A stretch of DNA of 64,000 bases. It comes from Escherichia coli (GTDB lineage: Bacteria; Pseudomonadota; Gammaproteobacteria; Enterobacterales; Enterobacteriaceae). Both the position numbers and the translations under genes were made by a program. The notes below the pieces were generated by a model that did not search any database, was not told the DNA's origin, and saw only the letters and a program-made list of their open reading frames with translations. Position 1 is the stretch's first letter; each line of letters starts with the position of its first letter. The DNA lies in the NCBI RefSeq assembly GCF_003334405.1, contig NZ_QOWM01000002.1. One strand, given 5' to 3'. Positions 8,257-45,042 of this stretch are shown piece by piece.

Positions 8257-8286
8257 TTGACAAAATGTGGCGTGGATCACTATAAT
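8257..8286 (+). promoter_or_regulatory. Near-consensus sigma70 promoter (TTGACA, about 18 nt spacer, TATAAT) upstream of metY
   Basis: ttgacaaaatgtggcgtggatcactataat read directly; about 95 nt upstream of the tRNA. Confidence 0.5.
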
Positions 8287-8378: not shown

Positions 8379-8455
<77 letters not shown>

Positions 8456-40398: not shown

Positions 40399-41190
40399 TT
40401 ACAAAATGCCGAATGCGGAACAAACAATAGAGAGCATAAAAGTCACGCCGATTAACAGCACCGGATGCGCTTTTTTCACCCGCAGGAAGTAATACATCAG
40501 CAGGGTGTAGGCCATCGGTAAAATGTTCGGGAAGACTTTATCGAAGAAATCCTGCTGCAGCGCAACGCTGTGGGTATTGTCGATGGCAAACGATGTCACC
40601 ACGTTAATATGCACATACGAAGCGATCAGCCCGCCGATTACCGTGATCCCGAGGATGGTTGCCGAACGGGCAATCATCTGCGAGTTCTCTCGCACTTTAT
40701 CGATCGCCTTCACGCCGACTGAATAACCGACGTGGGTCCAGCCGACGCGCAGGAAAAAGATAAGCAGGTAAACGGCGAAAAATAGAATCGGCCCCAGCAG
40801 GTTTCCCTGGCTGGCAAATGATGAGCAAATTCCCGCCATAATCGGCAACAAAGTAAACCAGAAAATCGCATCGCCAATCCCGGCGATTGGGCCAAACAGT
40901 GCCACTTTGAGGCCTTTAATGGTGTCGCGGTTTTCTCCTTTTTCTTCCATCGAAATTAATAACCCCATCAGGAATCCGACCAGATTCGGGTGGGTATTAA
41001 TAAATTCGAGGTTATCTTTCATCGCCGCGCTTAAGCCCGGTTTGTCGTCCTTATAAATCTTTTTCAGGATCGGCAACATCGCCCAGGTAAAACCGCCCGC
41101 CTGCATCCTTTCGTAGTTAAAGCTCGCTTGCAGCAGCGACGAACGAAAGCCCAGACGGGTGATATCTTTTTTACTGATTTCAGATCCCAT
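40399..41190 (-). CDS. agaD: PTS mannose-family EIID component (galactosamine)
   Basis: Track ORF 40399..41337 trimmed to MGSEISKKDITRLGFRS. Confidence 0.88.
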   Translation of the reverse strand: MGSEISKKDITRLGFRSSLLQASFNYERMQAGGFTWAMLPILKKIYKDDKPGLSAAMKDNLEFINTHPNLVGFLMGLLISMEEKGENRDTIKGLKVALFGPIAGIGDAIFWFTLLPIMAGICSSFASQGNLLGPILFFAVYLLIFFLRVGWTHVGYSVGVKAIDKVRENSQMIARSATILGITVIGGLIASYVHINVVTSFAIDNTHSVALQQDFFDKVFPNILPMAYTLLMYYFLRVKKAHPVLLIGVTFMLSIVCSAFGIL

Positions 41191-41983
41191 TGCTGTAGTC
41201 CTCTTCTTCATTTTTACTGGCAACGGGCTGCGGTTGCGCTTGCTGCCGGGATTTCGCATTGAAAAACTCATACACCGCAAAGCCTGCGCCCAGTACGGCA
41301 ACCGGCAACAGGTTGCTGACCTGGATGTAGCAAACAAACAGGAAACCGGCGATCAGGTAAGGGATATATTGCGCTTTGAACATTACGCGCAGCAGCAAGC
41401 CAAAACCAACGGCAGGCAGAATACCGCCAGCCACTTCAAAGCCGTGGGTCAGCCAGGCGGGCATCGCTTTCACCAGCGCCTGCATCGCCCCCTGTGCCAG
41501 GTAAGTACAGAGGAAAGCAATCACCGCATACGCTGAAGCGACGATGAGCATCGTTGTCCAGTTAAGCCGGGAAAACGCTGCCGTATCCGCCTCTTTCGCG
41601 CATTTATCGGCTTTGGTCATAAATAATGAGAAAGCGGAATAGAAGAACAGAATGACGTACTGCATTAACAAACTAAACGGCAGGCCAAGACCAATTGCTG
41701 TTTTGGCATCAACGCCCGTAGACCATGCAATGACGGTGGTCATCAGACCCGCCATAATCGGGTTGGGCGGCTGAACACCACCTGCAGGGGTTAATCCGGC
41801 GAAAGCCAACTCTGTCAGACCACCGGTAATTAAGCCAGTCTGAATATCACCGAGAATAGCGCCAGTTAGGGTACAAACGATTATCGGGCGGAATAAAAAT
41901 AAGGCTTCCAGCCAAAAATCAATCCCCAGAACAAAAACTAACGCCGCCAGGGATAATCCCTGAAGTAGGGTTATTTCATGCAT
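41180..41983 (-). CDS. agaC: PTS mannose-family EIIC component (galactosamine)
   Basis: 267-aa membrane ORF; overlaps the agaD start. Confidence 0.88.
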   Translation of the reverse strand: MHEITLLQGLSLAALVFVLGIDFWLEALFLFRPIIVCTLTGAILGDIQTGLITGGLTELAFAGLTPAGGVQPPNPIMAGLMTTVIAWSTGVDAKTAIGLGLPFSLLMQYVILFFYSAFSLFMTKADKCAKEADTAAFSRLNWTTMLIVASAYAVIAFLCTYLAQGAMQALVKAMPAWLTHGFEVAGGILPAVGFGLLLRVMFKAQYIPYLIAGFLFVCYIQVSNLLPVAVLGAGFAVYEFFNAKSRQQAQPQPVASKNEEEDYSNGI

Positions 41984-42021
41984 TTTTATTACCTCAAACC
42001 AATATTAAGGCGATTTTAGAT

Positions 42022-42498
42022 TTAGTCAGGGATTTGTTCTTTTTGATCGCCAGGGACGTCCTGAATGAAAACATTCACGCCACGTTGTTTAATAAAACGT
42101 AAGTCCGTGAGATCCTGGTCATCGACATAAACTTTACTGCTGATTTGCTTTTTCCCTTCCGAGAAATGCATATTGCCGACGTTGACATCTTTCAGGTCAA
42201 TACCACCTTCTACCAATTTACGTACCGTTTGTGGCGTACGGCAAATCAGGAAGATCTTCTGATGTGGTGCAGCTTTGCCGATGACGTTAATGGTTTTTTC
42301 GATAGTAAAGAAACGAATGCCAAAGCCGTAGGTTTCCGCGGTAATACCCATTAATTTCTGTTGAATATCATCGTTAGCGACAACATCATCCACGACTACC
42401 AGCAGATTTGCACCGATGGTGGATGTCCAGGTCACGCCAACCTGACCGTGAACCAGACGGTTATCAATACGGGTTAAGAGAATATTTGGACTGGTCAT
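42022..42498 (-). CDS. agaB: PTS mannose-family EIIB component (galactosamine)
   Basis: 158-aa ORF; phosphorylatable His context NRLVHGQV. Confidence 0.88.
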   Translation of the reverse strand: MTSPNILLTRIDNRLVHGQVGVTWTSTIGANLLVVVDDVVANDDIQQKLMGITAETYGFGIRFFTIEKTINVIGKAAPHQKIFLICRTPQTVRKLVEGGIDLKDVNVGNMHFSEGKKQISSKVYVDDQDLTDLRFIKQRGVNVFIQDVPGDQKEQIPD

Positions 42499-42664
42499 TG
42501 TGTAATCCTCACCATAAAGTTGAATAATATAATTTTTTTAAATATATTATTGTTGCGATATTGTAGTGATGTATTTATTAAGGTTTAGTTATCTCCTTTT
42601 CCATTAAGGCACTCCCCGATATTAATCGGGAAGTACATTGGGATAAATCATAAAAAACTAATGA

Positions 42665-43537
<873 letters not shown>

Positions 43538-44729: not shown

Positions 44730-44880
44730 TTGTCGCTTTCACTTGCCTTTCGTTTCATTTCACTTGGTGATGTCTTTCGTTGATTAAAATCTATAGAAAA
44801 GAAACTGAAAGTTCAATGGAGAAAAAAGAAATAAAACGAAATTTGTGATCGTTGAAAGAAAAGATAAAGGAAGCAAAAGG
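44730..44880. promoter_or_regulatory. agaS promoter region with DeoR-type (AgaR) operator-like repeats
   Basis: Repeated CTTTCGTTTCATTTC / GAAACTGAAAG / AAACGAAAT motifs upstream of agaS. Confidence 0.4.
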
Positions 44881-44884
44881 GATT

Positions 44885-44990
44885 GCTGGATGCGGCGCAA
44901 ACGCTTTATCCGGCCTTGCGGTCACCAACTGTAGGTCGGATAAGACGCGTTAGCGTCGCATCCGACACCGCTGCACAGATCAAAACGAAA
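44885..44990. repeat. REP-like palindromic units between agaA and agaS
   Basis: gatgcggcgcaaacgctttatccggcc and gtaggtcggataagacgcgttagcgtcgcatccgaca. Confidence 0.5.
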
Positions 44991-45042
44991 GAAAAAGAAA
45001 GGCCTTACGGGGGAAGTGAAGGCCCAATAAAGGAGCAAACTA

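Follow-up and report, generated by a model that had tools for sequence, protein, structure and literature searches.

Conserved elements in the AT-rich kbaY–agaB spacer of the Escherichia coli aga operon: a stem-loop downstream of kbaY and candidate promoters possibly silenced by H-NS

The aga/gam regulon is a textbook-level yet thinly studied sugar system, in whose operon map the genes are taken to be simply co-transcribed from the promoter Ps. The agaS-kbaY-agaBCDI unit nevertheless contains one long gap, between kbaY and agaB, and the question raised by this locus is whether that gap is merely crossed by transcripts started at Ps or whether it carries signals by which the expression of agaBCDI is set apart from that of agaS and kbaY. 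A preliminary description of the locus had raised the latter possibility, suggesting that an internal promoter or a processing site could uncouple the PTS-component genes from those of the catabolic enzymes. To address the question, the gap was analyzed within the 64-kb window (the whole stretch of E. coli DNA under study, 64,000 nucleotides) and compared with its counterparts in other genomes, as well as with published transcription data.

Location, distribution and conservation of the spacer

In the window kbaY (42665-43525) and agaB (42022-42498) both lie on the minus strand, leaving between them the gap 42499-42664, which measures exactly 166 bp (Table 1). The coordinates and the AT-richness given in the preliminary description were thus accurate; with a GC content of 27.7%, the spacer ranks among the 0.9% of 166-bp windows in the 64 kb that are poorest in GC, and the AT-rich string cited in that description corresponds to 42541-42583, read on the plus strand. 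The claim that most genes of the operon are tightly packed or overlapping was also borne out: elsewhere in the two aga units, neighboring genes are separated by 22, 10, -11, 17, -4, 12, 38, -11 and 0 bp, so that none of these gaps exceeds 38 bp, and the kbaY–agaB gap is the sole long one within the agaS-kbaY-agaBCDI unit. One bigger gap is found elsewhere in the aga cluster, the 350 bp between agaA and agaS, where the Ps promoter and AgaR sites are known to lie.

The window has the full 13-gene aga cluster. Since agaW, agaE, agaF and agaA are intact in it, the strain is not K-12; the spacer nonetheless matches positions 3284004-3284169 of K-12 MG1655 base for base. Among 5426 complete E. coli genomes, 5247 were found to have it between neighbors annotated as kbaY and agaB, at a median of one place per genome. 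As it is single copy, a dispersed repeat of the REP, BIME or ERIC type was ruled out.

Table 1. Positions, in the 64-kb window, of the kbaY–agaB spacer and of the features in and around it
Feature	Position	Strand	Remarks
kbaY–agaB intercistronic spacer	42499..42664	-	166 bp, GC 0.277
kbaY stop codon TAA	42665..42667	-
Conserved stem-loop GUACUUCCCGAU-UAAU-AUCGGGGAGUGC	42609..42636	-	ΔG -19.2 kcal/mol; begins 27-28 nt downstream of the kbaY stop codon
Hairpin-loop -10-like TAATAT	42619..42624	-	-35-like TTTATC at 42642-42647; 7.1 bits; predicted TSS ~42612
Conserved purine box AAGGAG	42593..42598	-	from the alignment; no start codon downstream
Conserved block CTTAATAAATACATCA	42567..42582	-	in Citrobacter, supplies the -35 region for the weak sense arm (TTAATG, TTCATG or TTAATA)
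Symmetric -10 core TAATATA	42543..42549	.	sense TAATAT 42549-42544, antisense TATATT 42543-42548
Antisense sigma-70 promoter-like site TTGAAT-17-TATATT	42520..42548	+	12.4 bits; also found by consensus scan
Near-invariant block TTTATGGTGAGGATT	42504..42518	-	99% identity in both Escherichia and Citrobacter
agaB Shine-Dalgarno GAGGA	42506-42510	-	within TTTATGGTGAGGATT, 7 nt before the ATG
agaB start codon	42496..42498	-
kbaY-internal antisense -10 TATAAT	42748-42753	+	outside the spacer; 7 nt before the published TSS MG1655 3283908(-) = window 42760

A scan of species-representative genomes for AgaB yielded 27 enterobacterial loci. The adjacency of kbaY and agaB, in this order, is maintained nearly everywhere among them, and the junction itself is very plastic: the spacer measures 38-113 bp in Enterobacter, Lelliottia, Phytobacter, Pluralibacter and Kosakonia, 164-167 bp in Escherichia, 173-200 bp in Citrobacter, Trabulsiella and Pseudocitrobacter, and 335 bp in one C. 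amalonaticus, owing to a dispersed (MITE-like) repeat. In two taxa (loci L012 and L018) the junction extends over ~2.9 kb, with an inserted malX-like PTS gene and a gene for a PatB/MalY-family lyase; L012 displays in addition a full terminator directly before agaB. The 143-bp insert at locus L016 has a median of 5 copies per genome, and a few E. coli strains carry IS1 and IS4 insertions or a 16-bp deletion of the -10 block. The idea that the spacer is the scar of a malX/malY-like insertion was rejected, as the flanks of these insertions have no similarity to it.

The spacers of Escherichia and Citrobacter could be aligned (11 sequences, six from the former and five from the latter). Several blocks run through the whole alignment: the stem-loop after kbaY, the AAGGAG box, a CT-AAT-AAT block, ATAATAAT(A/G)TAT, ATTCAA exactly 17 nt further on, and TTTATGGTGAGGATT. 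The hairpin and the promoter blocks were found in these two genera only. Enterobacter, Lelliottia, Phytobacter, Kosakonia and others retain kbaY-agaB with short spacers from which these blocks are missing, indicating that they are not needed for operon function. Two of the conserved boxes, ATTCAA and AAGGAG, could serve other roles.

The stem-loop downstream of kbaY

In the sequences compared, the stem downstream of kbaY is 12-15 bp long, with folding energies of -9 to -21 kcal/mol. RNAalifold predicted this helix as the sole structure in the spacer, and the 3' half as unstructured. When the proposed pairs were examined over the 11-sequence alignment, 87.3% of the alignment cells were paired, compared to 31-45% when the partner was slid by 1-3 columns, and 8 of the 15 pairs were changed on both sides. 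Among the non-Watson-Crick cells, G·U pairs on the operon strand outnumbered A·C, which is equivalent to G·U on the opposite strand, by 22 to 7. On these comparative grounds, the compensatory changes together with the strand bias of the G·U pairs show the stem-loop to be a feature selected in the sense RNA. A second hairpin, AATAATATA-N11-TATATTATT, was predicted in E. coli and discarded; it is unconserved in Citrobacter and was not predicted by RNAalifold.

The hairpin is similar to an intrinsic terminator in that a GC-containing stem of 12 bp, with a folding energy of -19 kcal/mol, follows a stop codon. It differs from one in having no U-tract in Escherichia, where the tail after the stem, CUUAAUGGAAAAG, has one or two U in the next 10 nt. 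No canonical intrinsic terminator was called in the spacer by a terminator scan, and in the absence of a U-tract termination by the hairpin is not predicted. In Pseudocitrobacter, the positional equivalent of the hairpin has a U5 tract.

Intercistronic stem-loops that confer segmental mRNA stability are known from the REP hairpins of malE-malF, from Rhodobacter puf and from E. coli papBA. The spacer hairpin is like these in being a stable structure located just 3' of an upstream cistron which is needed in amounts above those of a downstream membrane transporter, and in being followed by AU-rich single-stranded RNA. Unlike the malE-malF element it is single copy, with no REP or BIME, it occurs in Escherichia and Citrobacter only, and it is known here from sequence. 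AgaS and KbaY serve the catabolism of both GalNAc and GalN, and AgaBCD the uptake of GalN only (PMC3668189); since the enzymes are shared by two pathways and the transporter is not, an unequal dosage is plausible. We infer that the hairpin is a 3' stabilizer or barrier, or possibly a weak pause, which closes the agaS-kbaY segment. Of the two functions put forward in the preliminary description, the processing site may therefore survive in this form, as the conserved hairpin could be a stability or processing element of that kind.

Searches for other elements acting at the RNA or protein level were negative. A covariance-model search against Rfam 15 gave chance-level matches only (E of at least 1.4), none of them in the spacer, and no conserved small ORF was found in it among the relatives compared. 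Two reading frames were considered in this respect and rejected: an 8-codon ORF beginning ATGGAAAAGGAG, which is missing in Citrobacter, frameshifted in E. albertii and preceded by an unconserved Shine-Dalgarno sequence, and a 22-aa ORF on the plus strand, which begins with a TTG codon and displays no conservation. A BglG-type RAT antiterminator hairpin was also rejected; as judged by eye, the spacer does not resemble one in sequence, and the cluster has no antiterminator gene. Pairing of Spot 42 with the agaB leader, sought by hand, amounted to 6 bp only and was dropped.

Promoter-like sites and published transcription data

Sigma-70 promoters were scored at every position of the window and on both strands, approximately 640,000 configurations in all, using a simple -35/-10 weight matrix with assumed base frequencies. 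The top score, 16.3 bits, was obtained for TTGACA-18-TATAAT at 8257, ~90 nt upstream of a tRNA-Met gene, and its location before this gene provides a positive control for the matrix. The candidate in the Ps region scored 11.1 bits. The second best site of the 64-kb window, above the Ps candidate, lies in the spacer and points away from agaB; transcription from this antisense site is predicted to start at ~42555 (+), which corresponds to MG1655 3284113 (-). Its position, 56-60 nt from the agaB ATG, is the same throughout the 11 sequences of Escherichia and Citrobacter, where it scores 9.0-12.4 bits. Between E. coli and Citrobacter its hexamers are 93-100% identical and the 17-bp spacing is fixed, the 17 intervening nucleotides being 64% identical. 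In other genera with kbaY-agaB the site is absent.

The antisense -10 hexamer overlaps a sense hexamer in the symmetric core, with an offset of 1 bp between the two, and the TSSs predicted from the core, 42537 (-) and 42555 (+), are 18 bp apart. In bidirectional promoters a TSS separation of 18 bp is the commonest class, with 10 or 23 bp also encountered (PMC12825309). The predicted core fits this geometry, and it is geometry alone that is compared. In its overlapping TAATAT and TATATT, as in the distance between its predicted TSSs, the core is similar to the -10-symmetry bidirectional promoters of Warman et al. (2021), as these are summarized in PMC12825309. It differs from them in that its TSSs are predicted only and that a good -35 is present on the antisense arm only; unlike bidirectional promoters between divergent genes, it is situated inside an operon.

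The candidates on the sense strand score 6-8.6 bits, and their positions shift between taxa. Relative to the agaB ATG, the predicted TSSs are at -114 for TTTATC-17-TAATAT, at -142 for TTCAGC-16-TATGAT and at -39 for the sense arm of the symmetric core. The TAATAT in the hairpin loop is kept in all six Escherichia sequences; among the five from Citrobacter it is intact in one and replaced by GAATAT in another. AT-rich DNA readily yields promoter-like matches. As the preliminary description had supposed, promoter-like sites are present in the spacer; those in the sense direction are weak, and the best site in the spacer points antisense.

That description had also suggested a search for AgaR operator repeats. 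The AgaR operator consensus WRMMTTTCRTTTYRTTTYNYTTKK (Ray & Larson 2004) was searched for in the whole 64-kb window, allowing up to 3 mismatches. Six matches were obtained, as compared to 0.1 expected by chance, all of them either in the agaA-agaS region (44744-45004) or in the agaR-kbaZ region (50091-50291). The recovery of sites in both known control regions is a positive control for the motif; under the same threshold there were zero matches in 42499-42664, so that no such repeats were found in the spacer. An AgaR operator at this place is refuted, and AgaR does not act there. The spacer is in this respect unlike Pz, Pr and Ps, with which it shares the gene cluster and an AT-rich intergenic location. 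The spacer also contained no match to the CRP box with up to 2 mismatches, no sigma-54 -24/-12 element (the best spacer match having at least 4 mismatches out of 11), and no match with up to 1 mismatch to the high-affinity H-NS motif TCGWTWWATT.

Pz, Pr and Ps are the AgaR-repressed promoters of the aga regulon (Ray & Larson 2004, as cited in PMC3668189). A ΔagaS lesion in E. coli C has a polar effect on agaBCD and none on kbaY, and its complementation requires agaS through agaD (Hu et al.; PMC3668189). This polarity indicates that agaBCD expression depends on Ps, and that the kbaY–agaB interval makes read-through fragile. Over-expression of SlyA raises agaS-agaI 2.5-fold (PMC5797941). The Term-seq tables of PMC7815308 are without kbaY or agaB entries, the operon not being expressed in the media used.

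In the study of Forrest et al. (2022; PMC8894471), agaB served as a model target for H-NS. Their report gives Δhns logFC values of -0.43 for agaS, +2.88 for kbaY, +4.02 for agaB, +2.08 for agaC, +1.08 for agaD and +1.01 for agaI; agaB is thus up 16-fold, with agaS unchanged. Among the H-NS-bound segments listed there, 3283857-3283947 and 3284318-3284863 flank the spacer and exclude it. The H-NS-repressed TSSs among those listed are 3283908(-), 3284569(-), 3284673(+) and 3284823(+), and none of the listed H-NS-bound TSSs falls in the spacer. Converted to window coordinates, 3283908(-) lands exactly 7 nt past a TATAAT located inside kbaY, a fact which validates our conversion of coordinates. The published H-NS-repressed TSSs near the spacer score 2.8-8.1 bits on the weight matrix; because sites as weak as these are proven starts, the 12.4-bit antisense site is very likely to be competent, at least without H-NS.

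PMC8894471 also describes an in vitro template made up of the 3' end of kbaY, the spacer and agaB, from which an 'agaB mRNA' of 684 nt was expected. In the window this template spans 42848 to 42023. With a vector share of ~89 nt, which we estimated from the published 155-nt veg transcript, our own arithmetic places the assumed sense start at 42612-42617 (±6 nt). This is 114-119 nt upstream of the agaB ATG, in the right arm of the hairpin and beside the TAATAT of its loop.

One possible explanation for these observations is that the spacer contains an internal sense promoter in physiological use, from which agaBCDI would be expressed independently of Ps and AgaR, much as the preliminary description had it. 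A gap of 166 bp is of a length typical at transcription-unit borders, and the three weak sense sites are available to such a promoter; at locus L012, the terminator before agaB means that agaB requires a promoter of its own there. The expected 684-nt RNA, which implies a start in the spacer, and the 16-fold rise of agaB in Δhns cells with agaS unchanged (both from PMC8894471) also speak for a promoter that uncouples the PTS genes. Against it, the sense sites are low in score and differ in position between taxa, neither an AgaR operator nor a CRP or sigma-54 site was found in the spacer, and the polarity of ΔagaS in E. coli C indicates that any such promoter is insufficient for growth on galactosamine (PMC3668189). 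Moreover, the Δhns data can be explained in another way. The libraries of PMC8894471 are strand-specific, the strandedness of the gene counts is not stated, and the rises could therefore be due to antisense RNA; the antisense TSSs 3284569(-) and 3283908(-) alone can explain an increase in agaB and kbaY with agaS unchanged. We consider an internal sense promoter of this kind unlikely; taken together, the preliminary idea of an internal promoter or a processing site is supported in part.

An alternative scenario is that the antisense promoter is functional, and that a cis-antisense RNA running over the hairpin and the 3' end of kbaY modulates either kbaY or the read-through into agaBCD. The rank of the site in the window argues for this, as does the conservation of its hexamers and spacing in 11 out of 11 sequences around a variable intervening stretch; weaker neighboring sites, furthermore, are proven H-NS-repressed TSSs. 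On the other hand, no terminator or conserved structure was found on that strand (z-score -1.0), the G·U pairs of the hairpin favor the operon strand, the other genera carrying the operon lack the site, and in one natural strain (FXCREC180) the symmetric -10 core is deleted. This scenario appears distinctly unlikely to us. A similarly doubtful proposal joins the two directions into a bidirectional, H-NS-gated switch inside the operon: antisense RNA across the hairpin at the 3' end of kbaY would determine the amount of Ps transcription or of kbaY message that survives, and through the sense arm the galactosamine transporter, acquired horizontally, would be expressed independently of AgaR.

The spacer as an operon seam

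The extent to which the spacer is constrained was assessed from the divergence among seven Escherichia lineages. Per site, this was 0.165 in the 5' half and 0.075 in the 3' half; four-fold degenerate sites diverged by 0.242 in kbaY and by 0.152 in agaB. Compared with such sites, conservation of the 3' half is two- to threefold higher, and this extends well beyond the Shine-Dalgarno block, which indicates that the 3' half is under purifying selection; it was at least 95% identical in all of the 5249 E. coli genomes that contain it. With the exception of the hairpin, the 5' half seems to evolve about neutrally; it is dimorphic in E. coli, and ~540 genomes are too divergent there for megablast.

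These figures bear on a further reading, according to which the spacer is a neutral relic, the scar of a module fusion or of horizontal transfer, where the agaB ribosome site alone is functional and the promoter-like sites are due to chance. The roughly neutral and dimorphic 5' half agrees with it, as do the plasticity of the junction (38-335 bp, with a MITE-like repeat and the two 2.9-kb malX/malY-like insertions) and the IS1 and IS4 matches in E. coli. A foreign origin of the downstream genes would fit as well: AgaB, AgaC and AgaD share 57-74% identity with Firmicutes homologues, next to which AgaS and KbaY homologues are ~40% and 50-58% identical, respectively, and of all genes in the aga cluster agaB has the highest AT content (GC 0.44). 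It is opposed by the constraint on the 3' half, by the covariation and strand-specific G·U pairs of the hairpin, and by the occurrence of common blocks in two genera, and we regard it as very unlikely. There is only a slim chance that the spacer acts as a post-transcriptional control leader, an unstructured AU-rich target of CsrA, sRNA or RNase E with GGA and AAGGAG motifs that would tune agaB translation apart from kbaY; the leader is conserved and predicted to remain single-stranded, and its AAGGAG and GAGGA boxes are conserved with no ORF attached, but there was no Rfam match and no candidate partner was identified.

We think that the spacer joins two modules, as the seam at which the catabolic genes meet an AT-rich, H-NS-targeted galactosamine PTS module. 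The explanation that we prefer, with a probability of about 0.5, is that it is an untranslated operon seam which combines read-through from Ps, a hairpin after kbaY, and an agaB leader with H-NS-silenced cryptic promoters. Under induction, as the published genetics show, agaBCD is transcribed mainly by Ps read-through. With the stem-loop probably acting in a stabilizing or attenuating role, as a 3' barrier or a weak pause for agaS-kbaY, messages whose 3' ends arise by cleavage or termination within the AU-rich stretch that follows it would keep agaS-kbaY and lose agaBCD, and the outcome would be an excess of enzyme message over transporter message. The 3' part of the spacer is a conserved AU-rich leader, predicted to be unstructured, that bears the agaB ribosome-binding site. 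Upon this leader the symmetric core would be overlaid as a predicted bidirectional sigma-70 promoter, whose strong arm, with the TTGAAT -35, is directed antisense toward kbaY and whose weak arm would fire toward agaB. Judging by the neighboring sites, H-NS would keep these promoters, as well as the weak promoter of the hairpin loop, largely silent. For the overlay of the core on the leader the sequence evidence is strong; the promoter activity is predicted.

The spacer is an intergenic region already known, though unannotated, in the best-studied bacterium, and its elements fall into familiar categories: hairpins between cistrons, sigma-70 promoters that are bidirectional or cryptic, and, as proposed here, AT-rich seams under H-NS silencing. 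With the spurious promoters silenced by H-NS (PMC8894471), the core shares the locus itself, which is derepressed in Δhns cells and has documented neighboring TSSs at 3283908(-), 3284569(-) and 3284673(+), as well as the AT-rich context and the many sigma-70-like sites; unlike typical promoters of this class, the core is conserved between genera, and the spacer is located outside the H-NS segments listed there. In the literature searched, no published description of the conserved hairpin or of the antisense promoter was encountered.

If this explanation is true, the hairpin and the promoter core would account for differing amounts of the shared AgaS and KbaY on the one hand and of the galactosamine-only transporter on the other, and the polarity of ΔagaS on agaBCD but not on kbaY would be explained. 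It would also mean that a 'spurious' promoter silenced by H-NS can be conserved across genera. General principles would be unaffected; the value of the finding would lie in the local annotation and in a test case for models of bidirectional promoters and of xenogeneic silencing.

Transcription starts flanking the kbaY–agaB spacer

Two transcription start sites described as repressed by H-NS in MG1655 (Forrest et al. 2022, PMC8894471) fall close to the 166-bp spacer. The first, 3283908(-), is antisense and corresponds to window position 42760. A perfect TATAAT lies 7 nt ahead of it, and the 3' end of kbaY therefore harbours an antisense promoter (see table). The second, 3284673(+), is a sense start equivalent to window position 41995, placing it in the short gap between agaB and agaC; a promoter-like site matching it was found there (CTGACT-16-TAATAT, 7.6 bits by the simple sigma-70 weight matrix). 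It is possible that this gap provides a second internal start, serving agaCDI. The sigma-70 match located approximately 90 nt upstream of the tRNA-Met gene, which is probably the promoter of the metY operon, was used solely as a positive control. Inside the spacer, no start codon was found after the AAGGAG box.

Features of the window and of comparison loci (L) from other genomes
Feature	Location	Strand	Remarks
Perfect TATAAT up to the antisense start	window 42748-42760	+	within kbaY
agaB-agaC gap	window 41984-42021		38 bp, GC 0.26
AAGGAG box	window 42593-42598	-	kept in Escherichia and most Citrobacter
TTGACA-18-TATAAT	window 8257-8286	+	top sigma-70 consensus match in the whole window
tRNA-Met gene	window 8379-8455	+	
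Spacer 5' half	window 42582-42664		
agaB, agaC, agaD	window 40399-42498		
Spacer variant	L085:2891-3040		E. coli FXCREC180
Spacer variant	L086:2197-4566		E. coli ECONIH5
Spacer variant	L087:2248-3005		E. coli DXMF6-3R
143-bp insert	L016:3830-3975		C. amalonaticus S646; between ATTCAA block and agaB SD
Two-gene insertion	L012:1021-4000		Escherichia sp. MOD1-EC7003; between kbaY and agaB
Two-gene insertion	L018:1090-4000		Enterobacteriaceae bacterium 89; between kbaY and agaB

Variation and insertions at the spacer

Two forms of the spacer's 5' half occur among E. coli. The alternative haplotype, carried by approximately 540 genomes, diverges from the window sequence by approximately 16% and is nearer to E. 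whittamii. This pattern suggests that the polymorphism is ancient or that recombination has taken place in the 3' flank of kbaY. Three uncommon variants were also observed in E. coli. FXCREC180 has lost the symmetric -10 block AATAATATATTTAAAA through a 16-bp deletion; in ECONIH5 an IS1 interrupts the left arm of the hairpin and a second element, IS4, precedes a truncated agaB; and in DXMF6-3R a deletion linked to IS1 has removed the region from garP to the 5' end of agaB.

The insert in C. amalonaticus is a dispersed intergenic repeat, present in every E. coli genome with a median copy number of 5 and an identity of 80-90%, and as such it resembles an ERIC or MITE element. In two other taxa, MOD1-EC7003 and bacterium 89, the same gene pair was seen at the exact kbaY/agaB junction: a malX-like PTS IICB gene (TIGR02004, 732 bits) and a C-S lyase gene of the PatB/MalY family (TIGR04350). 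The DNA flanking this insertion is unrelated to the E. coli spacer. The MOD1-EC7003 locus has a canonical terminator immediately ahead of agaB, and its kbaY contains a premature stop.

Origin of the agaBCD module

AgaB, AgaC and AgaD share 57-74% identity with homologues from Clostridia, Bacilli and Erysipelotrichia (loci L031-L083); at the same loci, the homologues of the adjacent genes are much more distant (AgaS approximately 40%, KbaY 50-58%). The GC minimum of the aga cluster is agaB, at 0.44. Judged from these comparisons, the sequences suggest that the galactosamine PTS module (agaB, agaC and agaD) has moved between phyla.
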